From the IMG/VR virus record IMGVR_UViG_3300037518_000144, positions 1 to 57,756 of that record: DNA of 57,756 nucleotides; one strand, 5' to 3'. The DNA comes from a virus. Taxonomy: Duplodnaviria; Caudoviricetes. Numbering within the stretch: position 1 is the first letter of the stretch; every line of letters begins with the position of its first letter. The translations under genes and the position numbers were made by a program. Shown one piece after another: positions 4,473 to 50,092 of the stretch. The notes below the pieces were generated by a model that worked only from the letters and a program-made list of their open reading frames with translations, was not told where the DNA came from and did no database searches.

Positions 4473-5225
4473 TCAAGCCACTCTGGCTGGATCGTCAGAC
4501 CCACCCGGCTGACGCAAAAGAAATTTATGGAAATTTCCTTCAAACTTTCTATCAGCCAACCAATGGTCTAGCTGTAGATCCGGAACAACCCATATGGGAC
4601 CGCACTTTTCCGTCCATCTACGCGAGAACGAAAAGTCTTCTCCGTACCACAGACGCTCGTGCGCGCCGTGGTTAAACAAGTCGATTGATGGATTGTAATG
4701 CGGCCCATAAATCAGCTCAGGATAGGCCCGCATGAACTTCTCGATGCCTTCTTTAGTGATCTTCAGAAATCCCGCTGGCATCCATCGAGCAGATATACAA
4801 CCATCCTGCCTGACAATCGGATGGCCGGCATCATCTGTCAGAATAGTGCCCATGTACGTCTCTTCGTCCTTCTTGAAGCGATACGTGCCGGCTACTACAT
4901 CCCCCTTTGTTCGTATGAGGTGCAACAGATCTGGCGGATTCCAACTCACATCATGGTCGATGTAGACAACGATATCGGCCTTCGCATCCATTGCCTTGCG
5001 CGTCATCGTGGCGCGGTTGTGTGAGATGTACGGCGCGCCCACCGTGAATACCGCGCCATGGTCAAACCCAGCCTCATCAAGTAACTGGATAGAGTCTTCC
5101 AGGGACTTCAGGTAGGCCGGATGAGGTTTGGTGATTGTTGGCGTACAGATGATGACCTTTTGCCGTCCAGATGCCTCAATTGGCAATGCTCCATCCTCAT
5201 CGGCAACGAGTGTCGTATCGGTCAT
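4473..5225 (-). CDS. Glycosyltransferase (GT-A / family 2-like)
   Basis: ICTPT strand, DxD motif (YIDHD), GEDFSF motif. Confidence 0.8.
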   Translation of the reverse strand: MTDTTLVADEDGALPIEASGRQKVIICTPTITKPHPAYLKSLEDSIQLLDEAGFDHGAVFTVGAPYISHNRATMTRKAMDAKADIVVYIDHDVSWNPPDLLHLIRTKGDVVAGTYRFKKDEETYMGTILTDDAGHPIVRQDGCISARWMPAGFLKITKEGIEKFMRAYPELIYGPHYNPSIDLFNHGAHERLWYGEDFSFSRRWTEKCGPIWVVPDLQLDHWLADRKFEGNFHKFLLRQPGGSDDPARVA

Positions 5226-5746: not shown

Positions 5747-6354
5747 GCACGCACCTCCGACAATATACGAGCGCCTTTCCGTAGATTTTCTGTAATCGTG
5801 ACAACGCGAAGGTTGTCTTGGTGATGCAGTCCGCCGCGACTAAGTGGCACGATGTGATCGACGTGATGCCTTATGCCGGTTTCTCGTGTCAATCTCGCGG
5901 ACTCCTCATAAAGCGCCGCGATGGCGTCAAAATTTGCGTCTGGCGGCGTTTGGCCACGAATCCGTAGAGTTCTCATGCGAGTGTGCGCATAAGAACGAAC
6001 CGGATTCTTTTTGTGCCACATCCGAGTGATGTCTAGATTCTTTTCGCGATTCTCATGCTTCCATCGCATGGAGGCAGCGAACATTTTTTGTTTGTTTTTT
6101 TCGTAGTGCTTGCGTTGCGAGGCGCGAATTTTATCTCCGTTCTTCTCTCCCCACTCACGCAAACGACGATTGCTGCGATCCCTGAACTCAGGATCTGTCC
6201 GATATCGCTCACGTTCCTTGGCGGCATTACAGGCCCTGCAAGACTGGCCTGCTCTGCCTCGTTTTGATGGAGAAAACAACTCAACTGGCCTTTCGGCGGA
6301 ACATCCCTTGCAGAATTGAGCTGCTTTCATCGCCCTTATGCCCCGCCTTTCCAA
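5743..6354 (-). CDS. HNH homing endonuclease
   Basis: CxxC..CxxC N-terminus and HVDHIVPLSRGGLHHQDNL..N. Real start probably near 6330. Confidence 0.85.
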   Translation of the reverse strand: MERRGIRAMKAAQFCKGCSAERPVELFSPSKRGRAGQSCRACNAAKERERYRTDPEFRDRSNRRLREWGEKNGDKIRASQRKHYEKNKQKMFAASMRWKHENREKNLDITRMWHKKNPVRSYAHTRMRTLRIRGQTPPDANFDAIAALYEESARLTRETGIRHHVDHIVPLSRGGLHHQDNLRVVTITENLRKGARILSEVRA

Positions 6355-6581
6355 AGGCCAATGGCTGCTAATGTGTTCATGATCTCAATCATCGCTGCCT
6401 TCATGTCAGACGTAACGTCAGTGGATGATGCCGTACCAACAAGCGATGTCGCCTGTGCGGCCCCGGCTCGCTGAGTGATGGGCGTCGTACCGTAGAAGCC
6501 CGCTGTTCCGTTGGTACGATGCTCCAGGACATCGATCTTTTTGTGCGACGTCGAAACGCCGAACGTTTCCTCGGTAGGCAT
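6336..6581 (-). CDS. Small virion (head decoration/fibre) protein, paralog 2
   Basis: Downstream of coat. Highly similar to 6581-6808. Confidence 0.6.
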   Translation of the reverse strand: MPTEETFGVSTSHKKIDVLEHRTNGTAGFYGTTPITQRAGAAQATSLVGTASSTDVTSDMKAAMIEIMNTLAAIGLWKGGA

Positions 6582-6829: not shown

Positions 6830-7489
6830 TCATTCAACATGCTTCCAACTGCGTCTCTTGCGAATGTCGCAGATGGTTTGCGCCGTAACGCCGTGTTTGA
6901 CGGCGAGTCTGCCGTACGTCTCTGTGCTTGCTCGAATCTCGCGAACGATTTCCGGTGTGATGTTGTCGCTGACGCCGCGCCTCGGACTCACCCGAACGGA
7001 TTTCTTTCGCTCTCCGTTCAGATGCGTCCATGACACGCCATTCTTGATGCTGCCAACAGTAGAGGCAGCAATGCCGTACTCCTCGCCGATGGCAGCATAA
7101 GGTCGCGTGTCCGCCAAAATGGCCGTGGCTTGCTCTTCCGTGAGAATGGCGTGACCTGCCCGCTCTCCAAAAGCCGGCTTCTGCCGGCCGCGAACAATCA
7201 TGTCCTGCGTATTGTCGATCGGCCTGCCTAACGACAGATGATCGATGCGCACGCATGCAGGGTTGTCGCACGAATGCCTTACGTGACTTCCAGGAGGAAT
7301 CAGAATCATGTTTTGCAGCATCCACGCTGCTCTCGGGGCGCGGGTATGACGCTTTCCAAAGAGCCTGCAATTGAAGATTCCATACCCATCCTTGTCTTTC
7401 TTCCCGGTCCACTTCCAGCATCCATCCGACCTTCCCACATTTGCCAGAAATCTCCGCATTGTCTTCTCGATTCTCACAATATTCTCCAC
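6830..7489 (-). CDS. HNH homing endonuclease with C-terminal HTH repeats
   Basis: GCWKWTG..GYG, HSCDNPACVRIDHL..N, plus two HTH-like repeats ending in SWxH. Confidence 0.85.
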   Translation of the reverse strand: MENIVRIEKTMRRFLANVGRSDGCWKWTGKKDKDGYGIFNCRLFGKRHTRAPRAAWMLQNMILIPPGSHVRHSCDNPACVRIDHLSLGRPIDNTQDMIVRGRQKPAFGERAGHAILTEEQATAILADTRPYAAIGEEYGIAASTVGSIKNGVSWTHLNGERKKSVRVSPRRGVSDNITPEIVREIRASTETYGRLAVKHGVTAQTICDIRKRRSWKHVE

Positions 7490-7532
7490 GTACTTTTATG
7501 ACGACGTTAATCATCATATCGTACATGGAGAA
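7482..7532 (-). promoter_or_regulatory. Hairpin sequestering the HNH start codon
   Basis: On the minus strand TTCTCCATGTAC pairs with GTACGTGGAGAA (containing the GTG start at 7489), with an inner ATGATGA/TCGTCAT stem. Confidence 0.6.
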
Positions 7533-7565
7533 CGCTTGCTGCCTTTTGGCCTATTCTCCTATAAT

Positions 7566-8765
7566 TCAGCCGTCAGCGTGCAATCGGCTAGCGAGTTGTG
7601 CGCGCAAGGTAGCCGATCCAAACAGAACGTCTATCCTGCACGGGTGTTGGTCATTGTTGATGTCGTAGGCACGAATGATGCGCATGCTGATCCCGTCGTA
7701 GACCTCCCGAGCTGCGAACGACACTCCTTCAGGGAGGATGAGATCGGCCGTCCCGAAGCAGAACGCGTCCTTGTGATAGCCCATCGAACTAGTGAGCAAC
7801 TCACTTGCGCCAGCACCGATCTTGTTCACGGCACCGGTAGTGGTCGGACTTGCAGCTACATTCTGTGCACCCCCGCTGGTGATGATCGATGGAGAGATTG
7901 CCAGCGTCGTCGCATTTGCACCGGAGTCCGCCGTGATGACGAACTGCTGCAGTTGGCCGGTATCGATCTTCGTTTCAGGGTGTACGCGGTTGCATCCGGC
8001 AAGCGTGATCACGTCGCCCTTGAGGAACGTCGTGGTGCCCGTTCCAACCGTCAGTGACGCGCCGGTCTGGTTGGCGCCGTTGACGTTGTACAGCGTGTCA
8101 CCCTCGACAGCCGTGCCGGTCGTGTGATCCAACACATGTGTGGACTGGAAGAAGTCGAACATGGCCGACTTACCCATACGGCCTTCCTTGTACTGCATGG
8201 ACAGAACATCCTGCGGATTGAACAATCCCTTGATCTGATCCACCAGTCCGACCTGATGCGTGGTAGACAACAGCATGGTGCGCTGCTCGTCTTCTGGCGC
8301 CAGGTTATCGTCCAGCTTCTGCTTCGCCAGCAGCACGCTTCTCAGCGTCGGCGCAACGCCATTCTGGTTGACGAGGTTGTACACATCCTTGTACCTCGCA
8401 GCCCAGACGGTGGACTCCATGTAAGCGGCAATCGTCGCCATCGCCGGTGTGATGATGCGCTCTGAGAACTGATCCAGATCCAGCGTCAGTTCCTGCGACG
8501 TGAAATTGATATCAACACCCGCCTGGCTGCTGATCTGGAAGGTAACGTTGCGTTCGACGTTGTCCTGCACGCTGAGGGTGCGACCGGTGCGAATCGTGTA
8601 CTGATTGGGCAAACGGATGCGCAAGGTGTCGCCGATTTTCGCGCCTTCCTGTGCGAACTGGTTATCGTAGCCGCGGTTGATTGAACCGATGAATCTGAGT
8701 TTCTGGTGGAGGACTCGCAAAGCCTCCCTTGTGATCTGATCGACAGTGAGAGTTGTATTGGACAC
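7566..8765 (-). CDS. Major capsid protein (P22 coat family)
   Basis: 399 aa with KIGDTLRIRLP and RIDVLFG motifs. Follows the scaffold gene. Confidence 0.92.
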   Translation of the reverse strand: MSNTTLTVDQITREALRVLHQKLRFIGSINRGYDNQFAQEGAKIGDTLRIRLPNQYTIRTGRTLSVQDNVERNVTFQISSQAGVDINFTSQELTLDLDQFSERIITPAMATIAAYMESTVWAARYKDVYNLVNQNGVAPTLRSVLLAKQKLDDNLAPEDEQRTMLLSTTHQVGLVDQIKGLFNPQDVLSMQYKEGRMGKSAMFDFFQSTHVLDHTTGTAVEGDTLYNVNGANQTGASLTVGTGTTTFLKGDVITLAGCNRVHPETKIDTGQLQQFVITADSGANATTLAISPSIITSGGAQNVAASPTTTGAVNKIGAGASELLTSSMGYHKDAFCFGTADLILPEGVSFAAREVYDGISMRIIRAYDINNDQHPCRIDVLFGSATLRAQLASRLHADG

Positions 8766-38222: not shown

Positions 38223-40110
38223 CTCGCTACTGGCCGAGCAGCTATTCAACGTGTCCCCATCGCTCTACACGGAAGACGTGGCGTGCTGGATTATCAGAGA
38301 AGGCCGAATGGTTGCGATCTCGACACCACACGAAGGTGGCGGGGCCGCTATTTTCCTGAACGTTCCAGATGCGCGTGTTATTCGCGACTGGCTCAACAAG
38401 GCGCTGCCATGAATGCTCCGAGTTCTTCTGATTCGTGGCTCACTACGGCGCGCGGGCTGTGCTCTATGGATGGGCAGAACACGTTAACCAACCGCGAACT
38501 GCTGGCCCTTGTCGAGTGCGCGGAAGCATTGAAGTCTGCAAGGTGCCCAAATAGCAACTGCGACAACAAAGGCACAATCATGCAGCGGGTGCACGACTGG
38601 TTCGAGCCGGCGCCGTGTCAATGGTGTGACGAACGGGATGCGGCCCTCGCCAAGCTGGAGGCTCTATGAATGCTCCTAGTTCCAAAGATACGCGGGCGCT
38701 AACCCTTCGCATGGCTCTCGCCGTTGGCGCCATGGACCCGCGCTTCCGTGCGGCATGCGAGGGCGTGCTAAAGCTGGTTGAAGAGATAACCGCCGAACGT
38801 GACCAGTACAAGCAAAAGTTGACCGAGGCGCAGCAGTTAGCGGTACGTCAGGCGCACGAACTGAGGAAGCAGCGAGCATGACGATGTCGTTTGAATATTT
38901 TGTTGACAGCCTGAAGGACGCTGGCTGGGTCGATATCCATGATGCTCAATGGGAGGGCGCGCGTAAACTCTACGACGAATTGTTCGCGCACGAATCAGTA
39001 GCACCAGGATCATCGAAGGAGCTGCGCAGCGTCTTGCGTCCAGAAGCTGATATCTGGGTAGATGGTCATAGGCGCTGCGTGAGGGTCGTGCACGAAAAGC
39101 ACTACGATGCCGCGCTTACCGAGATCGAGCGTTTGCTTCGGATAGCTGAGTCGAAGGCAATACTACCGTCCGAACCGCCCGCCACATCATCGAAGGAGCT
39201 GGTAACGCCAGAGCGTCTCGGCATCCTGAAGCAGTCCCCGCGATCGGCAGACGTAACAGATGTGGAAGATTTGTGTGAAGAGGTGGAGCGCCTACGCGAT
39301 TACGGCTGGTGGACGCAAGTGGCGCGGCGCGCGTTAGGTTTCGCCACCGATCGTGAATTGGCCTCTCTGCGAACCACTCACGAACCGGGAGCGTGGCAGC
39401 CGATTGAGACGGCACCTAAAGACCGAGAGGTTCTGTTTTGGGTCGAGCCGTTAAGCACGGAAGAAACGTACCGCGATACATCCGGTAACCCAATCACATC
39501 TGGCACAGAGCCGCGCATGATGCTTTGTCGCTTCGGTCGTTGGTCGAGCCTCAGCAAAGCGACTCGTTGGGCTGATGTGCCTGACAGTCCCGCGTTAACG
39601 AAGGGGGCGAGTCATGAGTAAGCCCGTGTGGGAAATCGAGCCGCACTACTGCAGCGACTTCGACATATTGGACGTGGGTAGCACCGATGCCTGGGATGAG
39701 TTGATTCAGGTTGTCGAATATGTCTACGACAACATGGAGCCGGGCGACGAACGAACGATCACGATTCGCTACAACGGACCTGCTAAGGGAGAGTCGGACT
39801 CAACGAAGGAAGCAGGTCAATGAGTGACGTGGAATGCCCCTACTGCGGAGCTGATCAAGAGATCAATCACGATGATGGCTACGGGTACGCCGAGGATGCC
39901 AAGCATCAGCAGGAGTGCGGAGATTGCGGCCAGACGTTCATGTACACGACGTACATTCACATGACGTACACGCCGCACAAAGCCGACTGCCTGAACGGTG
40001 CGCCGCATGACTATCAACTGACGAAAACGATCCCGCCAGAATTTGCGTGCATGGAATGCACCGTGTGCGAAGACCGGAAGCCTAGACCTGCTGCGGGAGA
40101 GGGAGCGTGA
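38209..40110 (+). other. Run of small coupled early genes (38209, 38409, 38666, 38878, 39614, 39820)
   Basis: Overlapping start/stop coupling. Several have Zn-finger or WQPIETAP motifs. Confidence 0.6.
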
Positions 40111-41027
40111 CGGTTAAGTTCGCCGATATGAAGCTCTCTCGGATCATCCCGCAGCACGTGCATGCCGTTAAGTTTCGGTGGCTGCATCGAGACTTTATGA
40201 CGATGTCAGATCGATATCGCGAGATCCGTGCCCGTACTAGTCACCCGATGGACGCCTGCAAATGGTGCGGCTACGCATTCGCCAACGGCGATGTGATGGC
40301 TCTCGCTCAGCCAGAGAAGGGAGTGAATTGGGTGCTCTGCCAGACGTGCGCGCAGATGCTAGAAAAAAGCTCAGAGTTGGAAACGAACCTGACTCGTTTA
40401 CCAGAGGTCATTGAGGAAACATGCGCGTGGTGCAGCGGCGTCGGCCGAACCGGCTGCCCTGGAGTCGTCTGCAATTTCTGCAGCGGCGAAGGCGTCCAGC
40501 GACGCAATAGACAAGGTTGAACCGGAGAGCGCTTATGGAAACGCCAATCCTATACGACGACTACGACTATGACGACGAGTACCACGAGCGTGATGACGAG
40601 GAGGAATTCTGCTACCACTGCCAGGACCGTGGCTACATCCCGGCGATGGACTTCGAGTCAATCCAGGGCATCGAAGGATGGGCATGTGACCACTGCGATC
40701 GCGGCATAAACAGCAACTTTCCCTTCCGTCCCACTTCGAGAACCGGAGCAGACCATGGCTAAAGAAGGCGCGGGAAACCCGATCGACTGGATCAAGCGCT
40801 GTCCCGTATGCGCAGAGGCGGCTAAACAAGTGGAGCGCGAAGCTATGCAACAGAAACAGTCGGCATGGACCAAGCAGCTACTGCACTACGTGAAAACGGA
40901 AGTGCTGTATCCGGGTTCATTCAAGAACAACAGCAGCTACGCCGCCGAAGTCATCAAGGCTTTCGAGTTCGGGCACAAAGCCGGCGTGCGGTCCGCTCGT
41001 GCCAAATACTCAGCGCAGCGTCGATGA
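40107..41027 (+). other. Three small Cys-rich early genes (40107, 40517, 40755)
   Basis: CxxC motifs and coupling. Confidence 0.55.
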
Positions 41028-41036
41028 GGTGTTCTC

Positions 41037-41693
41037 ATGCGTGAATTCACAGAAGAACTGTTCCTGAAAAACGTCTCGAAGCACGTCATGACAATCCTGC
41101 GCGACGACGGAGTGCATAGGCATGTGCGGTTCAAGCAGCCAGACAGCAGCAACATGTACTTTGACATAGTCACCTATCCGCACTTCCTGGTGTACTCGGG
41201 CGACATGGGCTGCTACGTCTTCAGCCGCATCAATGACATGTTCGAGTTCTTCCGCGGCAAGAGTGAGGGGCCGCTGCGGATCAACGAGAGCTACTGGGCA
41301 GAGAAGCTTGAAGCGACCGATCGCCAGAGCGGACAAAAGGAGTACAGCGCCGACCGGTTCCGCAAATACGTGGCGGATAGATTGGAGCAGATAAAGGAAG
41401 CCCAGACGATTGACGCAGATAGCGAGGACGAAGGTCAGTCAGTCGCCGCTGCGTTCGACGAGTTCGAGCTGGCCGTCAAGGACAACGTCCTGGCCTACGC
41501 TGACGACGGTGACTTACGAGCGCACCAGGCCCTCGATGAATTCGAGCACGAGGGCAATCGCTGGTTTAGCGACAGTTGGGAAGCCAACTTCGACGAGTAC
41601 ACGTTCCGCTTCGTCTGGTGCTGCTACGCGCTTGCGTGGGCTATTCGTCAGTACGACAAATCTAAACAGACAGCTCTTAGCGGAGGAGTGTGA
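41037..41693 (+). CDS. Conserved phage hypothetical protein
   Basis: RDDGVHRHVRF..GDMG..YWAEK motif. GAGG RBS. Confidence 0.7.
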   Translation: MREFTEELFLKNVSKHVMTILRDDGVHRHVRFKQPDSSNMYFDIVTYPHFLVYSGDMGCYVFSRINDMFEFFRGKSEGPLRINESYWAEKLEATDRQSGQKEYSADRFRKYVADRLEQIKEAQTIDADSEDEGQSVAAAFDEFELAVKDNVLAYADDGDLRAHQALDEFEHEGNRWFSDSWEANFDEYTFRFVWCCYALAWAIRQYDKSKQTALSGGV

Positions 41694-41694
41694 C

Positions 41695-42846
41695 GTGCAG
41701 AAACTGACATTCAACGACTTGCTCCAGAGAACGATGACCGGGGAGGAATCGTTCTACCTCGCATCAGACGTGGGCGAAGAACTGCGCCGTGCCGCCGATG
41801 ACCGCGCGCGAAGCGACGCGCGCATTGCCGATCTTGAAAGCGCCATCCGTGTGTATGCCCGCCATCGCTCTAACTGCATGGTGCATTTCGATCAATCGTG
41901 CTCGTGCGGGTGGGAGCAAAAGAGCCGAGAACTAATGGAGAGTGAGCAGAAATGAACGAACACTACCACTACATTCTCGATGGCCATGATCCCGTAGCGG
42001 TTGACTTGATGACGTGGGAAAGATGGCGTGAGGCCAATCAAGAAAAGAAACGAGTCGCGCTGGATCAGATCAACGACACGAGAGTCTCGACCATCTTCTT
42101 TGGTTTAGATCTAAGTTTAGGCGACGGACCGCCGCTGATCTTCGAGACAATGACCTTCGGCGGTGCGCTCAGCGACGGATGCGAGCACTACTCAACATGG
42201 GCGGAAGCTGTAGCTGGGCATGCCGCCATGTGCGAACGCGTGCGTAGCGCTCAGGGCAAGGAGGATAGTCATGGCTAGATTTCATTGGCCGACGAAGAAA
42301 CAGGAGACCGCATTGAAACATCTTGCCGGTAACGCCGACGCTGGCCTGGCGCTAACGATCCCAGAAACGATTAGCGCTCTGCGCGGACAATGCCGGTGCA
42401 TAGCTCCATTCAGGGGCTGTGTAATGTGCATCGCGGCGACAATCATCGAGCGCTTTGATGCCAATGCAAAACCGCTGTCGCTTAGCCAAGCAGACCAGCT
42501 TTGTGCCGTACTCACCGACCAATTGCGAAAGATCGTTTACGAGCACGCTGGAAAATCCGAGGTAACTGAGTAAATGAGCGTCAACGAACAGGTTTTGTCT
42601 CAGATCAAGATCCTCGCCGCTCAGCGCGAGAACACAGGCAATGCGATCGAGCAACTTACCAAGCAGCTTGTGTGTGAGTGCTGTGGCGGTAACGACGATG
42701 TTGGCATCCGCCCTCTGATGTGCTGCGCACCGATCTGCCAGCACTGCTTTTACATCTGGTACGACCACGGAGAAACGGACCCGGAATGCGTACGCGATAA
42801 ATCGATTGAGAGGCAAGGTAAGGGCAAGGGAGCGAGTAATGAGTGA
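41695..42846 (+). other. Four small early genes (about 41695, 41952, 42271, 42574)
   Basis: RBS and coupling. Confidence 0.55.
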
Positions 42847-43061
42847 TCTGGTCACTGTGGCAGTTCCCCTTGAGGGATACGACGCGGAATGTCGCGCAAT
42901 CAACGCAGTGATATTCCCGGAAGTATGTACCTAACGAAACACGGTATGTAGATCCATTTTTGCTTATTTTCTGCTGATCCGAGCCAAATCCGCTGTTATG
43001 TGAAATTAGTGCCAAGTGGGAAAAACTTGCACGTCAGGTTTACTCATGTATAATGTTTCCC

Positions 43062-44036
43062 ATGACGAAGCAGACCAAAATTCAGAACCGCTCAACCAAG
43101 GGCGACAAGATCATTCAGGCTCTGCCAATTGCTTGTGCCGATGAAGCAGCAGCCGTGCTCTTCATGGAAGAACAGCGTTGGGGCTCGGATGTCTGCTGCC
43201 CCCGCTGCGGTTCGCTCGATGTCTACCAGATGCGGGACAGCAAGACCGGCCAGCGTCAGAAGAACTTCCGTTGGCTCTGCCGTGACTGCAAGAAGGCTGG
43301 CGAGAAGAGCCAGTACACCGTACGAACGGCCACCGTGTTCGAAGATTCAAAGATTGAGCTTCGTCACTGGTGCTTTGCCTTCTGGCGCGCCTCTACTTCC
43401 AAGAAGGGCGTTAGCGCCCTTGAGATACACCGCCAGACCGGCCTTGCTTACAAGTCCTGCCTGTTCATGCTCCACCGTATCCGCTTCGCGATGGCACCAG
43501 TGGACGGCAATCCATTGACCGGCATTGTCGAAGTAGACGAGACGTATGTTGGCGGCAAGCCCCGCCGTAAGTTCGATGGTTCAGTCGGCGAGCGCACTGC
43601 AAAGTCTGCTGTGCTCGGCATCGTGGAACGTGGTGGCCGCATCCGTCCAATGGTCATTGCCGACGTAACGGCTGAAACCCTCCATGCCGAAATCCTGAAG
43701 AACGTAGACCGTCGCGCCCGCATCATGACGGACGAGCACGTGAGCTACACCGGCATCGGCAAGCACTTCGAAGGCGGTCACGAGACGGTCAAGCACAGCG
43801 CCTACGAGTACGCACGCGGCGATGTCACCACGAACACCATCGAAGGCTTCTTCTCAATCCTGAAGCGCGGCCTTAACGGCATCTACCACAGCGTCAGCAA
43901 GAAACACTTGCACAGGTACCTTGCGGAATATGAGTTCAGGTACAACCACAGGGAGCTTGATGACGGCGCAAGAACCTCAGCCGCTATCAAAGCATCAGAA
44001 GGCAAGCGCCTGATGTATAAAGGACCGGCTGGTTAA
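43062..44036 (+). CDS. tnp: IS1595-family (ISXO2-like) DDE transposase
   Basis: Zn ribbon CPRCG..CRDC, VEVDETYVGG, IMTDE, NTIEGFFS, HLHRYLAEYEFRYN. TTGCAC-16-TATAAT promoter at 43027-54. Confidence 0.95.
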   Translation: MTKQTKIQNRSTKGDKIIQALPIACADEAAAVLFMEEQRWGSDVCCPRCGSLDVYQMRDSKTGQRQKNFRWLCRDCKKAGEKSQYTVRTATVFEDSKIELRHWCFAFWRASTSKKGVSALEIHRQTGLAYKSCLFMLHRIRFAMAPVDGNPLTGIVEVDETYVGGKPRRKFDGSVGERTAKSAVLGIVERGGRIRPMVIADVTAETLHAEILKNVDRRARIMTDEHVSYTGIGKHFEGGHETVKHSAYEYARGDVTTNTIEGFFSILKRGLNGIYHSVSKKHLHRYLAEYEFRYNHRELDDGARTSAAIKASEGKRLMYKGPAG

Positions 44037-44063
44037 TGAACAGCGTTTGTGCCACGATAGGTA

Positions 44064-44178
44064 TACGGGTGGCGGGATACGAACCCGCATGGGGTTGCTT
44101 GGGGGAGGCGCGAACCGTCCCTAGCAAGAGCCCGGCAGCGTCCAAAGCTGCTGTGTCTACCAGTTTCACCACACCCGC
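44064..44178 (-). tRNA. Atypical tRNA: Leu-like body, UGG (Pro) anticodon, ~46-nt variable arm
   Basis: Acceptor GCGGGTG/CACCCGT-A; D arm GTG-AAACTGGTAGA-CAC; anticodon arm GCAGC-TTTGGAC-GCTGC; T arm GCGGG-TTCGTAT-CCCGC. No encoded CCA. Confidence 0.75.
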
Positions 44179-44205
44179 ACAGAGAGTGCTCAAACGCTCT
44201 CGGGT

Positions 44206-44257
44206 CAGGGTGTGGAGGGGTCATGGCCGCGAAACCTTACCCTCCACACCCTGCTTT
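44206..44257. other. 14-bp perfect hairpin next to the tRNA 5' end
   Basis: CAGGGTGTGGAGGG / CCCTCCACACCCTG followed by CTTTT. Confidence 0.6.
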
Positions 44258-44298
44258 TACGGCCGCCGGGTCGGCCTATCTACTTATCATCATAATCC

Positions 44299-44781
44299 TC
44301 ACTCCTTTGCTCGCTGGGCGGCCAATCGTTTCTCGATTGCACTAATTGCATCCGGCAGATGTCTCTTCATTTTCCAGAACCTGCCCTGTCCTGTTCTTTT
44401 GTTGTCGTAGACTTGGCTTGGATTGAGACCACAGTCCACGATAAGCCGATTAATTATGGCGCTACGTCCACCAAGTGCTTTCGGCATAGTGATGCCCAAA
44501 GCTGCCATCATCGTTCCCGACCCAGCCCCCTGCGGTCCGGCGTCTCGAATTGCTTTCAAAAAAGCGATTGCAGCAATTGGAGTCCAGTCCGGGAAGCTGC
44601 CTTCTGGCTCATCCTCGGTACGCGGTTGTTTGTTTGCGTGGATGATCGGCGCTCGCGCTGCCGATGGAGGCGGCACAGTGCTGGCGTTCCGAAGCTGTCG
44701 ATACAACTCGGCGGCTTCTGCAGCTGTGGCTGCTTCGAATTCCATTCCATCAAAATTGAGTTTGATACCCATGCTTGCCAT
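44299..44781 (-). CDS. Hypothetical passenger protein (possible winged-helix C-terminus)
   Basis: 160-aa ORF with protein-like composition. Confidence 0.6.
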   Translation of the reverse strand: MASMGIKLNFDGMEFEAATAAEAAELYRQLRNASTVPPPSAARAPIIHANKQPRTEDEPEGSFPDWTPIAAIAFLKAIRDAGPQGAGSGTMMAALGITMPKALGGRSAIINRLIVDCGLNPSQVYDNKRTGQGRFWKMKRHLPDAISAIEKRLAAQRAKE

Positions 44782-44833
44782 GCTATCAGGAACTTCTGGT
44801 ACAGAGCAAGCTCAAGACATGACATGAGAGTAC

Positions 44834-44998
44834 ATGATGCCGCCAGAGCCACAGAAGCGATCAAGAACAAAGAAGCGCGGGCCACCGCCTGATCGGGTAA
44901 AGATCAAAGGCGACTGGACGGAAGCAATGAAGAAAGCTCTAGAGAAAAAGCGCCCTACTGGCGGCTGGCCGGAGCCTGAGAAGAAGCCGAGTAAGTAA
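44834..44998 (+). CDS. Small basic passenger protein, 54 aa
   Basis: GPPPDRVKIKGDWTEAMKKALEKKRPTGGWP. Below the ORF-track cutoff. Confidence 0.55.
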   Translation: MMPPEPQKRSRTKKRGPPPDRVKIKGDWTEAMKKALEKKRPTGGWPEPEKKPSK

Positions 44999-45157
44999 GC
45001 TCTTCGCGCAACACCTTAACTTCATCAGGTGCGGAAATACCGATTCGAACGCTCACCAGTCCGCTGCCCGCATGCTCGATGATGCGAGTTACGGTTAGGG
45101 TGATGTCTTTGCCGATCTGAATGGATTCGCCGGGAACGGCCGGGAAAGGATGAGCAT
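44955..45157 (-). pseudogene. csrA: csrA/rsmA homolog, frameshifted
   Basis: GGAGG RBS and MLILSR, then GESIQIGKDITLTV..VRIGISAPDEVKVLREEL in another frame. Confidence 0.8.
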
Positions 45158-45302
45158 AGAACCTCCGTGTTCGAGTGAAACCGATTCATAAATCGCGGGT
45201 GACTATGCTACAGTGCGCCGCGTTACGCCTCCCGCTTCTTCCCTCCGGTCGGGCGCGGGTGAGCGTAACGAGAGATTTGCAGCTTGTAAAGCTCCAGACA
45301 AC

Positions 45303-45328
45303 AAAAAACCCGCCGAAGCGGGTTCTTT
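45303..45328. terminator. Terminator-like hairpin immediately 5' of the tRNA
   Basis: AAAAAACCCGC-CGAA-GCGGGTTCTTT. Confidence 0.6.
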
Positions 45329-45330
45329 GC

Positions 45331-45420
45331 GGTCAGGTGGCAGAGTGGTCGAATGCAACTTCCTCGCACGGAATTTCGCTTTTGGCGACGCCGCAGGTTC
45401 GAATCCTGTCCTGACCTCCA
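45331..45420 (+). tRNA. Atypical tRNA: Ser-like class II body, CGC (Ala) anticodon, U73
   Basis: Acceptor GGTCAGG/CCTGACC-T-CCA; D arm GCA-GAGTGGTCGAA-TGC; loop CT-CGC-AC on a weak stem; variable arm TCGC-TTTTG-GCGA; T arm GCAGG-TTCGAAT-CCTGT. Confidence 0.78.
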
Positions 45421-45426
45421 CATCCT

Positions 45427-45457
45427 ACCGCCCCGAACTTCTTAGGGGCGGTCTTTT
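45427..45457 (+). terminator. Intrinsic terminator after the tRNA
   Basis: ACCGCCCC/GGGGCGGT followed by CTTTT. Confidence 0.7.
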
Positions 45458-45620
45458 AATCTACCAGCGTTTTCGTCTCTTGCCACGTTACGTTTTACGT
45501 ACCGTGCGATTCGTCACACCACTTCTCAACAGCAACAGTATATTCAACACGAGCCAGAGAGCAATAGTTTAATTGCCGTTAATCTTGCTTATTCTCTCTT
45601 AACGTCTAATATTGCCAGCT

Positions 45621-45839
45621 ATGGCCAAGGTTCAGCGGTTTTTCGATGATCGCGACGTTACCCTGAAGGTCAACGACACGATCTACGAGTATCTGGAAGA
45701 CCTTGGAAAGACGGGCCTATACGGCAATACTCACGGCCAAGCCGCCGAAATCGTTCTCCGGATAGGACTCAAGCAACTGATTGACTCGGGGCAACTGAAA
45801 CCCAAGGAGCATCAGCTGGCAAGGGAAGCTGGGAGCTAG
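45621..45839 (+). CDS. Small putative RHH-like regulator
   Basis: Beta-alpha-alpha pattern (VTLKV..YLEDL..GLYG..AAE). Upstream of the TA pair. Confidence 0.55.
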   Translation: MAKVQRFFDDRDVTLKVNDTIYEYLEDLGKTGLYGNTHGQAAEIVLRIGLKQLIDSGQLKPKEHQLAREAGS

Positions 45840-45856
45840 CTAACGGTGGAGCGCCT

Positions 45857-46405
45857 ATGATTTTCACCGCAAGTAAAGTAGCCCAAATGGCCGCCGTATT
45901 CGCCCGCAAGGAAGGTGGCGCGATCAATGTCCTGAAACTCGCGAAGCTCCTCTATCTCGCAGATCGCGAATCGATGAATCGATATTCTGCGCCGATTTCA
46001 TTCGACAAGTTTGTCGCTTTGAAGGATGGGCCTATGTTGTCAAAGGCCCGCGATCTTGTTCAGGGAAAGATCGTGTCGGAGGCGTGGTCTTATTGGATGT
46101 CGCCACGCAAGGGACTAAATGTCGCGCTCGCACACGAGTTTACCCGTGACGATCTGGACCAACTGAGTGATGCAGATTTAGAAATTCTGGACTCAGTTTG
46201 GGACGAACTTGGAGCGATGGATCGCTTCGAGTTGCGGGACTACGTTCACGAGCATTGCCCCGAGTGGAAGAATCCTGGCGATACATCAAAGCCGATAAAC
46301 GAGGCAGAAATATTTAGAGCGCTCGGCCTGCCCGCAGCGGAAGCGAAAAACATGGCGGAGTCAGTTCGAATTGAGCGCAGACTCGATAGGATTTTCGGAC
46401 GCTAG
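45857..46405 (+). CDS. Panacea-domain (SocA/DUF4065) antitoxin
   Basis: KLAKLLYLADR..GP..LS..D.EIL..H..PEW. Confidence 0.85.
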   Translation: MIFTASKVAQMAAVFARKEGGAINVLKLAKLLYLADRESMNRYSAPISFDKFVALKDGPMLSKARDLVQGKIVSEAWSYWMSPRKGLNVALAHEFTRDDLDQLSDADLEILDSVWDELGAMDRFELRDYVHEHCPEWKNPGDTSKPINEAEIFRALGLPAAEAKNMAESVRIERRLDRIFGR

Positions 46406-46414
46406 TCGGACCCC

Positions 46415-46801
46415 ATGTTCGTTGCTAGGAAACGGGGAACATTGTTGTATCCCGCCGGACCTTCGACTAATCCACATGAGATGCACTTGTTTGTGATCGT
46501 GACGGAGCCTTACGGGCCAGCCCGACAACTCATCATGCTGCCGATATGCAGTATCGAAGACGGTAAGTTTCACGACCCGGCCTGCATCATCCACGTTGGG
46601 GACCACAAATTCATTAAGTGGCCGAGTTACGTTGCTTACTCCAAAGTCAGGGAGGAATTTGCGGATGGGCTTGCAAAGGGCGTTGCGAATGGTGGCGTCT
46701 CAGATCGCGGACTGATCGACGAGGTAGTCTTCGATCGCATCTTGTCAGGGGCGAAAGTAACAAAGCACATCAAGCCATTCGCCAAGAAGAAGCTTGCTTG
46801 A
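46415..46801 (+). CDS. Putative PemK/MazF-like toxin
   Basis: HLFVIVT..PICS..DPACII..GDH.FI..SYV.Y, SH3-barrel-like. Directly downstream of Panacea. Confidence 0.55.
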   Translation: MFVARKRGTLLYPAGPSTNPHEMHLFVIVTEPYGPARQLIMLPICSIEDGKFHDPACIIHVGDHKFIKWPSYVAYSKVREEFADGLAKGVANGGVSDRGLIDEVVFDRILSGAKVTKHIKPFAKKKLA

Positions 46802-47174
46802 ACCAGCAAACGCCACCCGGTGCTGGAAAACGGGCAATGTGGGGAAAGCCGGGCCACCCCAGAACCGCAGAAAATTCGTCCCGCCGCTCCACAGCTCGCG
46901 CTAGTAGCCACCGGGCCGCGAGCCCACCCACCATCCAGTGCTCATACAGTGCTTGGCGAAGTGGGAAATCCCTCCCGCATCCCACCTTTCCGGCAGGCAT
47001 CTTTGTAGATGCCTAAATGTACCTTAACCCGTTGATTCTATATGGGGTTTCGTTAGGTACATACTTCCGCGAAGTTGATCTACCGCCGGCTCTTCAGTAT
47101 TGGACCGAGCGCATGGAAGAAATCCGGGATTGGCAAGCGCGTAGAGCGGCAAATCAACCCAAACCGGAGCAGTC

Positions 47175-48166
47175 ATGAGCCAGTGGGGCGTGCTCTACGA
47201 AGATACCGGCGAGTGCCATGTTGCGCCGGTGTTGCCGGATGGCCGGCTAGCGCTGCACCATGCATTGCACGAGTTCTGCCCATGCGGGCCGAAGCCACAG
47301 TTGCACGACGATAAGCAGATATGGGTGCATCAAGATGCCGAGCGCGGCGGGTTCGATTCGTAGCGAGTTCTGGGAGAACGATGTGTTTGATGAAGTCCCG
47401 CATACCGGGTACGACTGCTGGAAATTCTCGATTGAGTACCGAGGCGCGTTGCTATGCTTGTGCTGTGGGCGCTTGTATCAGCCATGACAGCGCACAACAG
47501 CGAAGGTAAGCAATGAGCAAAAAACGATCAAATCCAGATCCGCCGCCGCGCCACATGAAGCCCCCTCCCCCGCCCGCCCCTCCGAGTCTTGCATTCATCC
47601 CTGACTACGGCAACGCAGAGCGCATAGAGCGCGTTCTGGAGTTCACCGAGGCACTTGCTCAAGACCCGCGCGGGGCTCAATTCATAGGTCAGCAGGTCGC
47701 GGAGATTCTGGCTTCTGGTAAGAGCGTGTACGTTAAGGTTGTGCGGCCTTCTGACAACACAAACGATGCGCAGCCGTAGATTCACAACCACATGGCGCCA
47801 CGACGTCACAGAGACGATTCGCATAGAATCCGATCATCAGCGCAAGCACCCGTTGGTGTACGGCTGGCTATCGCACCGATTCTACCGACCACGGGCGAGA
47901 GGTGTGCGGATGTTGCGCTATGAGTGGCGGCAGTTTACTGGGATGCCATAACACCGAAACGAATCACAGGAGAAATTGAAATGAACACACAACAGGCAAT
48001 CGACGCACTCTCAGCAATCACGGACGGCGATTGGGAGTCGGCCCGCGCAGCTACCATACTGCACGAGTTTTTGCGCAGCTACGACGCGGAGACTGCCAGG
48101 GTTGCGCAGGCGTACGAGGAAGCCAAGGAGCGTGCAGGGGCTATTGCTTGTCCGTCTCGCTCTTGA
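47175..48166 (+). other. Small genes at the end of the early operon (47175, 47513, about 47981)
   Basis: Short ORFs converging on the lysis genes. Confidence 0.45.
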
Positions 48167-48335
48167 CGCCAGCGGCAAATGACTCTGTTTTCGTCACGGC
48201 CACAAGCCTGTCAGTCAGCGAGTTTGTGGCCTTGTGGATCACCTCGGTTTTTCGAAATAGCACGACGAACCCGCCGATCGCCGTAACCAGCGTGGCGATA
48301 TTGCCGATGATCAGGGCAATCTCGGTGCCGGTCAT
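48141..48335 (-). CDS. Small membrane protein (holin-like)
   Basis: One N-terminal transmembrane segment. Lysis region. Confidence 0.5.
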   Translation of the reverse strand: MTGTEIALIIGNIATLVTAIGGFVVLFRKTEVIHKATNSLTDRLVAVTKTESFAAGVKSETDKQ

Positions 48336-48340
48336 AGCCG

Positions 48341-48574
48341 CTACATCCGGTCCTGAATCGACTGCCGGGTAGCCGCGATTGACTCAAAGCTGGGCTCGCC
48401 GTTCGCTTCCCAGTCCTCAGCATATTTTCGCATCAGGTCATCGACGTTCCGACCTTCCCGGAGTGCGCTCAGTGCATCGTTGAGCAATTCCGCCTGTTGG
48501 TTCTTTCCGCCCGCCGCCAGTACGCCGACAAGCGAACGCCCGAGTACCGTAATCCATAATGCAATGTCCATCAC
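48341..48574 (-). CDS. Lysis-region protein
   Basis: Coupled to the lipoprotein gene. Confidence 0.5.
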   Translation of the reverse strand: MMDIALWITVLGRSLVGVLAAGGKNQQAELLNDALSALREGRNVDDLMRKYAEDWEANGEPSFESIAATRQSIQDRM

Positions 48575-48987
48575 TTCACCCCGCTAACGAGATCGATCAG
48601 TTTGACGAGTTCACTTACCAGCGCGTCAACAGCGGCCTGCAGCTCAGTTTCAGTCGTAGCGCTGCGTAGCTTCTCAAGAGCCATTCCAGCCGCTTCAGTG
48701 CGCTGAGCTGGCCCAGCCTTGCATGCGCCGGTCACAACTGCCTGCGCACGCTCATCGGCGCTACAGACGGTCAGGCGATAGCCCTCTAGCAGCTTGGCCT
48801 TTGTCGAATCAGACACGGCCGGATCTTCACGCAGGTCGGCAATCTGTTCGCCGATAGCATTATGATGGAGGAGCACACTTTTCGCGTACTGCGGTGGCGT
48901 GCTGGCGAGTTCGTAAACCTGTTTTGTGCCGCCACATCCTGCGATCAGGATCAGCAGGAGCGGGAGTAACGATAGCTTCAATTTCAC
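48571..48987 (-). CDS. Lipoprotein (spanin-like)
   Basis: Signal peptide with an LIAGC lipobox, downstream of the endolysin and holin. Confidence 0.65.
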   Translation of the reverse strand: MKLKLSLLPLLLILIAGCGGTKQVYELASTPPQYAKSVLLHHNAIGEQIADLREDPAVSDSTKAKLLEGYRLTVCSADERAQAVVTGACKAGPAQRTEAAGMALEKLRSATTETELQAAVDALVSELVKLIDLVSGVK

Positions 48988-49250
48988 GGTGAGGACTCCT
49001 TCGGTATTTCAGATTTAATCGCAGTTTCCATAGATTTTGCCACCTTTTCAGCTGTCGAATTGCTGAACCCCACGCCCACCGTTGCCGAGCCTACCAACAT
49101 GCCGGCAATGCCCAGCCACCTGATGATGCTGGGATCCAGTAGGCCCTCGAATGCACCGCTGGCAATGAGCGTCATCAGCGTCGTCAGCATCGTTGTGACA
49201 GTGCCAAGTATCTTGGTCCAGTTGTTCGAGACGAGTTGCCAGAAAGTCAT
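48984..49250 (-). CDS. Putative holin
   Basis: Two transmembrane segments and a charged C-terminus. Adjacent to the endolysin. Confidence 0.65.
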   Translation of the reverse strand: MTFWQLVSNNWTKILGTVTTMLTTLMTLIASGAFEGLLDPSIIRWLGIAGMLVGSATVGVGFSNSTAEKVAKSMETAIKSEIPKESSP

Positions 49251-49765
49251 AGTCCTAAGATTCTCCGTATGCGAAGCCAGTGAGAAATGCGATCGTCCAG
49301 GCCGTTATATCCGCCGTTAATAGCGCGAGTCAGTGCCCCGAACCGATCTGCATCGGCGTGCTCGTTGAGCTTCTTCCACTGCCAGAACCACCCCGCAGAG
49401 CGGCAGGCGTTCTCGGGCGTCTCTAGCAGTTCAGGGGACGACAACAGGTCGAGCCCTAGCGCCAGTCCGCAGGCTGTGTAATTCGCCTTGCCGGTTACCT
49501 GAATCAGTCCACGGCCACGGTACTTCACCCCGTCACCGGGAGACGTGTTGCCCAGATCCTTGCGCCCCTCGTATGCACTGCCGTCCGCAATCTCTTTGAC
49601 ATACCTGAGCGAGCCGGACTCGTGTGCTAGCTGGGCGAGAAAGGCGGCCTGTCGCCGTGGCGTGTCAATCTCAAACTCTGCCATCGCATCGGTAAGCGGA
49701 ACCGCAAAGTTCGTCGCTCTGTTCGAGCCGAACGGCATCATTGAAGCGAGTTCAGCGGGCGTCAT
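49247..49765 (-). CDS. Endolysin, glycoside hydrolase family 19
   Basis: AAFLAQLAHESG, YRGRGLIQVTGKANY, TRAINGG. Confidence 0.92.
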   Translation of the reverse strand: MTPAELASMMPFGSNRATNFAVPLTDAMAEFEIDTPRRQAAFLAQLAHESGSLRYVKEIADGSAYEGRKDLGNTSPGDGVKYRGRGLIQVTGKANYTACGLALGLDLLSSPELLETPENACRSAGWFWQWKKLNEHADADRFGALTRAINGGYNGLDDRISHWLRIRRILGL

Positions 49766-49906
49766 CGTCGTCCAGCTCTTTCGGATCGAATCCACGCAGC
49801 CCGTTCGGGCGGAAACCGCCGTGCCACACGTAATAGAGCAGCGCGCCGATAACGATCAACCCCGAGATTGAGATCAACGCCCATACAAGATCACTCATTT
49901 ACCGCC

Positions 49907-50092
49907 TTAGTCCTCTTCGCAGTACGCCTTATTCTGCATCCGCGTGAGATAGCGGAAGTCGTTGTCACACGGCTCCGTATGCGCGCAAATCTGATCGATC
50001 TTCGCTAGCTGATGTGTGGTGAATTCTGCGCGTACTTCGGGCTCTTCGAGAGTTGCCTTCAGTGCGTTGAAGATAATCGTTCTATGGCTCAC
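49907..50092 (-). CDS. Hypothetical protein
   Basis: GGAG RBS. Confidence 0.5.
   Translation of the reverse strand: MSHRTIIFNALKATLEEPEVRAEFTTHQLAKIDQICAHTEPCDNDFRYLTRMQNKAYCEED

Follow-up and report, generated by a model that had tools for sequence, protein, structure and literature searches.

We analysed a window of 57,756 bases that represents a complete IMG/VR virus record (IMGVR_UViG_3300037518_000144) and that contains, at 45331..45420 on the + strand, a serine-type (7/5) transfer RNA (tRNA) gene with the formal anticodon CGC, U73 and an encoded CCA (ARAGORN, Rfam). The transposase domains, inverted repeats and shared end motifs found around this gene, together with its absence from five related phages, indicate that the CGC tRNA is cargo of an IS1595-family transposon and did not evolve in the phage. 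As to the gene itself, we tentatively suggest, at somewhat less than even confidence, that it may be a hitch-hiking derivative of tRNA-Ser that is inert or nearly inert in translation, because every element used in decoding or in tRNA-Ser recognition is off consensus.

The transposon is about 4.15 kb long (about 42918..47069), carries passenger genes and was recognized by its inverted repeats and a shared end motif. An inverted-repeat scan identified a left (42914..42947, + strand) and a right (47040..47073, - strand) terminal repeat, whose 34-nt arms are 88% complementary and lie 4092 nt apart, and the end motif CGGAAGTATGTACYTAACGAAAC was common to the ends of six related elements (L362, L358, L387, L341, L369 and L364). 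The gene at 43053..44036 (+) encodes an IS1595/ISXO2-type DDE transposase of 327 aa with an N-terminal zinc ribbon (Pfam PF12762, 138.7 bits, 2e-40; PF12760, 37.1 bits, 3e-9; both over their cut-offs), for which 7994 relatives were found, the best at 82-89% identity and many of these on contigs of 3.4-4.4 kb. Inside the repeats the order is transposase, a tRNA with a proline anticodon (-), a 160-aa open reading frame (ORF), the CGC tRNA with a hairpin on each side, a 72-aa ORF, a Panacea gene and a MazF-fold gene. The whole transposon stretch was absent from the five related phage records, the portal proteins of which are 64-89% identical to that of the window. By this absence and by the location inside a transposon, an ordinary codon-supplementing phage tRNA was ruled out, and the tRNA gene described in an earlier note, made from the letters of the window, is to be read as transposon cargo and not as a phage tRNA. 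A remnant of a phage integration site (attP) seems less likely, as the whole tRNA is present and not its 3' part alone.

Target-site duplications of IS1595 elements are 8 bp long (ISfinder). No such duplication was found at either candidate end of the transposon, where the flanks do not repeat. When an empty site was sought, the DNA of 40000-50000 matched relatives at the endolysin only, the flanking ORFs had no relatives in the five phages and the mapped contigs showed no joint across the element; with neither duplication nor empty site, the boundaries were drawn from the repeats alone. No plasmids with the whole transposon and no viral contigs sharing two neighbouring proteins of the CGC tRNA were found, and in other phages the stretch 43900-45700 matched nothing but 52 nt of a Pseudomonas phage, which extend over the hairpin ahead of the tRNA and 11 bases into the tRNA itself. 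The sequence of the CGC tRNA is no assembly slip, since contigs of two other runs, X2 (record 5, 45210-45467) and X3 (record 13, 44491-45889), cover the gene with 0 differences; both are sediment runs from the same year as the possible source run and maybe from one campaign, so that their independent support is weak.

ARAGORN called a single gene in the window, 45331-45420 (+), as a tRNA-Ala with the anticodon cgc at position 35, and Rfam RF00005 matched 45331-45417 (+) with 45.0 bits (gathering score 29; E 2.1e-6, whole window). The anticodon at 45365..45367 (+; ARAGORN and Rfam alignment) would formally read GCG. All seven acceptor pairs are Watson-Crick (G1-C72, G2-C71, U3-A70, C4-G69, A5-U68, G6-C67, G7-C66), with U-A at 3:70 and without any G.U pair; the discriminator is a U at 45417, followed by the encoded CCA at 45418-45420. 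The D-arm spans 17 nt (3-bp stem, 11-nt loop, 20a/20b insertion), the variable region has 18 nt with a stem of 5 bp, and the T arm consists of five pairs, including one G.U, and the loop UUCGAAU. The geometry is thus 7 acceptor plus 5 T pairs, U8 being unable to pair with U65. One base is unpaired on the 5' side of the variable stem and four are unpaired between this stem and the T stem. The anticodon stem contains A-U, C.A (non-standard according to cmscan), U-A, U.G and C-G, and closes the loop CUCGCAC, in which U33 and A37 flank CGC in the 7-nt register. The earlier note had placed a tRNA with the anticodon CGC here and had described a perfect acceptor stem, an encoded CCA, U73, a canonical T loop, a long variable arm, a weak anticodon stem with one mismatch and one G-U pair, and the lack of G3-U70, all of which were seen again; G3:U70 is the determinant of alanyl-tRNA synthetase (AlaRS) in the passages of Mukai et al. 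(2017, PMC5389517), and with U-A in its place AlaRS identity is absent.

The gene is framed by two hairpins read from the letters. The upstream one (45303..45329) is preceded by an A-run and followed by a T-rich run and looks like a bidirectional terminator; it stops 2 nt short of the first base of the tRNA, so that there is no room for a promoter directly 5' of the gene. The same hairpin is present in L405 and L390 with no tRNA behind it. This hairpin and the four unpaired bases go beyond what the earlier note described. Downstream, a terminator-like hairpin with a T-run occupies 45428..45459 (+). This hairpin (45428-45451) comprises seven G+C-rich pairs and a 10-nt loop and is followed by TCTTTTAA; the terminator scan admits loops of 3-8 nt and left it unlisted, so the downstream terminator, which the earlier note had also seen, stands as a reading of the letters. 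A promoter scan of the + strand from 43000 to 47200 gave no promoter-like site.

To place the body of the tRNA, viral and genome collections were scanned for the 17-nt D-arm and the T-loop motif, and 234 tRNAs were among the matches listed. The exact D-arm of the CGC tRNA occurred with Ser anticodons in 231 of these 234 (UGA 163, CGA 37, GCU 25, GGA 5, AGA 1), and their discriminators were G in 227, U in 4, A in 2 and C in 1. Its occurrence with Ser anticodons identifies the body as serine-type and the gene as an apparent derivative of a bacterial tRNA-Ser, in agreement with the Ser-like body proposed earlier. The three exceptions (L168, L175 and L127), all viral, had the anticodons UUA (ochre), GAA (Phe) and GUU (Asn). 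Among the matches listed, the four best relatives of the CGC tRNA were all tRNA-Ser(CGA), with about 68-69% identity and the loop CUCGAAA, and the simplest origin would be a tRNA-Ser(CGA) in which A36 was changed to C. The CGC tRNA shares with canonical tRNA-Ser(CGA) the 17-nt D-arm, G1-C72 and G2-C71, the 18-nt variable region, the consensus T arm and loop positions 32-35 and 37, and differs from it in C36, C38, the weak anticodon stem, U3-A70, U73 and the four unpaired 3' bases. In other words, it has the long variable arm and the serine-type D-arm of tRNA-Ser, and it lacks a Ser anticodon (NGA or GCU), G73 and the single unpaired base 3' of the variable stem.

These departures were quantified against 165 unique canonical tRNA-Ser, 121 unique control variable arms and 160 control anticodon arms. 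C36 was found in 0/165 controls and C38 in 1/165, an anticodon stem with as few as three Watson-Crick pairs in 4/165 and one with a single G-C pair in 3/165, and U3-A70 in 2/165; canonical tRNA-Ser(CGA) has A3-U70 and G73. Exactly one base was unpaired 3' of the variable stem in 121/121 controls (one on each side, an arrangement that sets how the arm is oriented), compared to four in the CGC tRNA. Nearest-neighbour energies of the whole cloverleaf were -20.5 kcal/mol with a 7-nt anticodon loop and -27.2 kcal/mol with a 6-nt loop, since the anticodon arm prefers a 6-nt loop closed by a UUCC/GGAA helix. When the arm was scored by itself, its canonical register lay 3.6 kcal/mol above the minimum, the largest gap among the 160 control arms being 3.0. 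The acceptor, D, variable and T helices are flawless, and the departures are concentrated on decoding and identity elements. This concentration can be read either way: selection may have damped or re-purposed the tRNA, or a few hits may have fallen there by bad luck.

The transposon carries a second tRNA, a leucine-type class II molecule with the proline anticodon UGG (loop UUUGGAC), A73 and a variable region of ~43 nt (44064..44178, - strand; Rfam 47.2 bits, missed by ARAGORN). For a survey of the family with Rfam and ARAGORN, 80 metagenome loci with transposase relatives at 56-82% identity were taken from the 349 found, and a leucine-type tRNA with a Pro anticodon (82-115 nt) stood beside the transposase in 50 of them, usually <80 nt from its stop codon and on the other strand. 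These tRNAs have a leucine-like D-arm, the anticodon UGG or AGG and variable regions of very different lengths; among 45 unique ones, seven acceptor pairs were present in 45/45, with 29 different acceptor strands, and A73 in 44/45. At the invariant Pro column 25 of the transposase, elements with AGG used CCT in 5/5 cases (about two lineages, some loci being duplicates) and elements with UGG used CCA in 39/46, while the ordinary Pro columns 50 and 170 were mostly CCG. Covariation of the anticodon with fixed CCA or CCT codons was also found at column 154, where the non-Pro alternatives are Lys, Met and Leu. Since the anticodon tracks fixed codons of the transposase, the hallmark Pro-anticodon tRNA of the family evidently decodes, a conclusion for which the covariation alone was confirmed here, and it is a stronger lead than the CGC tRNA. 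Both lie in the same transposon, belong to class II and have an anticodon that does not match the body; the sister, in contrast to the CGC tRNA, is conserved and covarying, whereas the CGC tRNA is a singleton without a codon partner. No publication on the Pro-anticodon tRNA of this IS1595 subfamily was found. Upstream of it and on the same strand are the 160-aa ORF (44299..44781, -), which had relatives by tblastn in L341 (53%), L407, L410, L390, L397, L350 and L379 and no Pfam, PHROG or NCBIfam match, and a conserved non-coding stretch (44868..44986, -) with blastn matches in L341, L346, L390, L344, L368 and L406; the ORF and this stretch form one unit with the same-strand tRNA.

Other odd tRNAs were observed in the family. 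L377 has a serine-like tRNA (2172-2275, -) with the loop CUCGAAA (CGA), U73-CCA and a weak anticodon stem, L381 a serine-like one with G73 and the anticodon UAA (6142-6237, +), and L415 a tRNA with the anticodon UAU (6489-6574, -). In both L406 and L408 a leucine-like tRNA with the anticodon GUC is accompanied by a 71-nt tRNA with the anticodon AGU (the pair at 4517-4705, +, in L406), and L382 has a class I tRNA with U73, the anticodon AGC and no G3:U70 (887-959, -). A Pseudomonadota genome (L452, 289-370, +) contains an 82-nt leucine-like tRNA whose anticodon is CUA (amber), and ~1.1 kb away lies the gene of a more distantly related IS1595 transposase, in which a genome search flagged one TAG; the idea of a suppressor was dropped, as no in-frame TAG was found over residues 30-324 (tblastn) and the N-terminus, and the TAG is probably the gene's own stop. 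Outside the family, a class I tRNA of 77 nt on a phage contig (L008, 306-382, -) agrees with the CGC tRNA in its acceptor stem, its T arm, the anticodon CGC and the lack of G3:U70 but differs in A73 and the loop GUCGCUC; its neighbour is no transposase but, from reading of the translation alone, a DNA methyltransferase-like ORF. No copy of the CGC tRNA was found in the 80 metagenome and 14 viral loci of the same transposase family, and exact pattern scans gave 0 matches for its 5' half in viral contigs and 0 matches for its two ends in metagenome contigs. The L377 tRNA was considered as a homolog with a Ser anticodon and rejected, its global alignment score of 13 being below the 30 of canonical tRNA-Ser, and it is regarded as an analogue only. 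The comparison of anticodons among homologs, which the earlier note had put forward as a test for a pseudogene, thus met no close homolog.

Taken together, these observations would be best explained by a gene related to tRNA-Ser(CGA) that arrived as a passenger of the IS1595-family transposon. Its transcript would probably fold into the L-shape and be cut by RNase P, the four body helices and the bases of the tertiary contacts being intact, while C36, C38, the weak anticodon stem, the four unpaired bases and U73 would be expected to lead to poor charging and poor decoding. The CGC tRNA would then be a relic or by-product of the tRNA-carrying habit of the transposon family, serving neither the phage as a tool nor the genes of the element as a private decoder; should it be made and charged at all, the charging would most likely fall to seryl-tRNA synthetase (SerRS), with GCG as the sole readable codon. 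Several points weigh against such inertness. The departures are non-random, as the acceptor (7/7), D, variable (5 bp) and T (5/5) helices are without mismatch and the consensus T loop, the CCA and the terminator are kept; the chance that about six random changes over 87 nt spare 40 paired bases is roughly 0.03, a crude value for changes defined post hoc, and the spared helices hint at selection for the L-shape. U73 combined with a long variable arm is viewed as compatible with serylation in the passages of Mukai et al. (2017, PMC5389517). Nearest-neighbour energies leave out base modifications and the ribosome, and the absence of homologs is weak evidence, given that 80 of the 349 metagenome relatives were scanned and that the pattern scans need exact matches. 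Moreover, the sister tRNA is evidently functional, so that the IS1595 family does use odd tRNAs, and the mismatched serine-like tRNAs in L377, L381 and L415 look like a class rather than decay.

An attenuated missense tRNA is in our estimate unlikely. In this view SerRS would charge it at a reduced level, GCG (Ala) codons would be read as Ser with low frequency in any cell with the transposon, and U73, the changed base of the variable arm and the weakness of the anticodon stem would act as dampers that keep mistranslation tolerable. The serine-type body with its intact helices and tertiary bases, U33 and A37 flanking CGC in the 7-nt register, and the codon-anticodon covariation of the sister tRNA, which suggests that tRNAs of this family decode, are all consistent with it. 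Ala-to-Ser is also a mild substitution. According to passages in the literature, mistranslation in yeast is lowered but not lost through second-site changes in tRNA-Ser, among them G73C and stem-weakening ones (PMC6827378), and in E. coli allo-tRNAs bring in Ser although their anticodons are not those of serine (PMC5389517). This possibility is weakened by the 6-nt-loop register, favoured by about 6.7 kcal/mol over the whole cloverleaf, by a variable-arm base unlike that of all 121 controls, by the lack of a promoter-like site on the + strand over 43000-47200, and by the use of GCG.

GCG is the commonest Ala codon of the phage, with 486 of 1601 Ala codons (34 per 1000 codons). GCG codons of the element were compared with homologs, two in the transposase, ten in the Panacea gene and three in the MazF-fold gene (the two of the 160-aa ORF lay outside this comparison), and all occupied Ala-conserved or variable columns and none a Ser-conserved one. 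In the Panacea gene GCG fills conserved Ala columns. The transposase has its two at residue 146, a column with Ala in 77/81 sequences, and at residue 291, a variable column (Ser 28, Ala 27, Trp 13) with the Ala codons evenly spread. In line with the lack of any checked GCG at a Ser-conserved column, private recoding of GCG in the element's own genes was ruled out. The core genes of the element use GCG in 4/55 Ala codons, compared to 486/1601 in the phage (Fisher p 7e-5), and the transposase in 2/28 (z -2.6 against GC content at third codon positions). With other G-ending four-fold codons as control, this depletion in the transposase shrank to z -1.25 (rank 8 of 81), and avoidance of GCG was dismissed. 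An efficient form of the Ala-to-Ser missense tRNA put forward in the earlier note is not borne out, given the preferred 6-nt loop, the un-serine-like variable-arm base, the absence of a Ser signature at GCG and the rank of GCG as the commonest Ala codon.

A role outside translation was considered next to the neighbouring operon. The Panacea (SocA-like) domain protein encoded at 45857..46405 (+; PF13274, 1.7e-20, 74.5 bits) is a putative antitoxin with 110 relatives, all containing PF13274. The gene at 46415..46801 (+) encodes a putative toxin, a 128-aa protein of the MazF/PemK fold, for which AlphaFold2 gave a predicted local distance difference test (pLDDT) score of 97.1 and Foldseek listed only MazF/PemK-type toxins as matches in the PDB (best E 7.7e-4; template modelling, TM, scores of 0.51-0.69). 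The MazF-fold gene was present in 13 of 401 sampled Pseudomonadota genomes and was directly preceded by a Panacea gene in 12 of the 13, which, with the predicted fold, makes the two genes of the window a putative toxin-antitoxin pair. The MazF-fold family has 707 relatives at E<=0.001; H24, H64 and S71 are invariant in 65 aligned members and differ from the residues that we take to be catalytic in MazF.

The CGC tRNA could act on this operon as a decoy, substrate or rescue copy for the MazF-fold ribonuclease or as a processing or regulatory signal, a view to which we give a low probability. Some MazF toxins cut tRNAs, the gene lies 200 nt upstream of the operon of 72-aa ORF, Panacea and MazF-fold genes, and its body is kept while the decoding end is altered. 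However, the pair stands without an ARAGORN tRNA in 12 of the 13 chromosomal loci (none within about 1.5 kb of the 12 chromosomal pairs), the only tRNA at the 13 loci being a tRNA-Met at the one locus without Panacea, and a terminator-like hairpin separates the CGC tRNA from the operon. Related transposons also carry the pair, or another set, without a second tRNA: L418 has the Panacea/MazF-fold pair, and L341, the closest related transposon (transposase 82% identical), has a HicA/HicB-like set. At 7004-7632 (-), in place of tRNA and Panacea pair, L341 has a gene for the toxin HicA (Pfam 41.8 bits) together with a HicB-like one, whose 21.3 bits are under the cut-off. As the pair stands without a tRNA in 12 chromosomal loci, the CGC tRNA as part of a toxin-antitoxin module is unsupported.

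Very improbable is a working tRNA charged by an enzyme other than SerRS, be it AlaRS by an unusual route, cysteinyl- or glycyl-tRNA synthetase by way of U73, or leucyl- or tyrosyl-tRNA synthetase by way of the class II shape, with GCG read as Ala or another amino acid. In its favour, U73 is the discriminator of bacterial tRNA-Gly, and a serine tRNA would not have so many unpaired bases behind the variable stem, where members of the leucine-type family described here mostly have two. Against it, G3:U70 and any acceptor G.U pair are absent, the anticodon differs from both GCA and NCC, A73 is required for Leu and Tyr identity, and the D-arm is exactly serine-type. Passages of PMC5389517 also give U73 as the discriminator of bacterial tRNA-Cys.

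Irregular tRNAs and allo-tRNAs near toxin-antitoxin and transposon genes were described by Mukai et al. (Nucleic Acids Res 2017, PMC5389517; reviewed in PMC7609411), and the following comparison draws on passages of that paper. A long variable arm with G73 or U73 is treated there as serine-type, and of the three anticodons that predominate in allo-tRNAs, two are UAU and GUC. The CGC tRNA shares with these molecules the long variable arm, G73 or U73, a non-matching, non-serine anticodon, the neighbourhood of toxin-antitoxin and transposon genes and an origin in soil or sediment; a further likeness is that some irregular tRNAs are inactive in translation. The earlier note had seen a conceptual similarity to allo-tRNAs, and the likeness goes beyond concept, as the gene sits in a transposon beside a toxin-antitoxin pair. 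Allo-tRNAs have 8/4 or 9/3 geometry and a tRNA-Sec-like D-arm with a long stem and a tetraloop, whereas the CGC tRNA is 7/5 with a canonical tRNA-Ser D-arm; it is for this reason not an allo-tRNA by definition and, by its predicted structure, belongs with the irregular mismatched tRNAs of that study. The figures and supplements of PMC5389517 also present '7/5 irregular tRNAs', which the CGC tRNA may resemble; in the passages of the text the name IS1595 has 0 occurrences. No published link between IS1595 elements and tRNA cargo was found among the papers listed, and Figures S5-S7 in the supplements of the 2017 study may show similar 7/5 tRNAs. Mistranslating variants of tRNA-Ser, engineered or natural, as presented in passages of PMC6827378 and, for human tRNA-Ser-AGA G35A, in the abstract of PMC12993449, share with the CGC tRNA a serine body, a non-serine anticodon and dampening second-site changes in the stem and discriminator; they arose by point mutation in genes resident in eukaryotes and their misincorporation is proven, whereas the CGC tRNA is mobile bacterial or phage cargo with several changes and is known from its sequence alone.

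The remaining features of the element and of the phage complete the picture. The 72-aa ORF ahead of the Panacea gene (45621..45839, +) had no family match and a weak relative in L382. Beside related transposons, Rfam identified the Xanthomonadaceae small RNA sX13 and the Burkholderia anti-hemB RNA (L351 5-116, L352 4054-4165 and L386 6945-7037), which are hints to the hosts of the transposon family. The genes of the window include those for head, portal, terminase and tail-spike, and the P22-like portal has <=37% identity to the portals of named phages. The two closest related phages, G001 and G002, contain an identical 123-nt tRNA-like gene (L091 1501-1623 and L092 1501-1623; Rfam 37.9 bits) with a leucine-like D-arm, an encoded CCA and a long insert, for which there was no ARAGORN call and which has no transposon protein close by.

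Should the CGC tRNA prove active, sense-codon mistranslation would have a source in nature that moves horizontally, by way of a transposon and then a phage, which would bear on how deviations of the genetic code start and spread. In its boldest form, which we judge improbable, the transposon would spread a deliberately damped serine-type tRNA that reads GCG and causes low Ala-to-Ser mistranslation wherever the element lands, while the sister tRNA privately decodes Pro codons of the transposase; if this were true, mobile DNA would carry a small kit of code-altering tRNAs that reaches every cell the phage infects. Even if the CGC tRNA is inert, as we tentatively favour, it indicates that an odd tRNA in a phage can be the cargo of a transposon, with consequences for the reading of phage tRNA sets, and it adds an example with 7/5 geometry and a canonical D-arm to the poorly understood mismatched tRNAs that are carried along with IS1595-type transposases and toxin-antitoxin genes.

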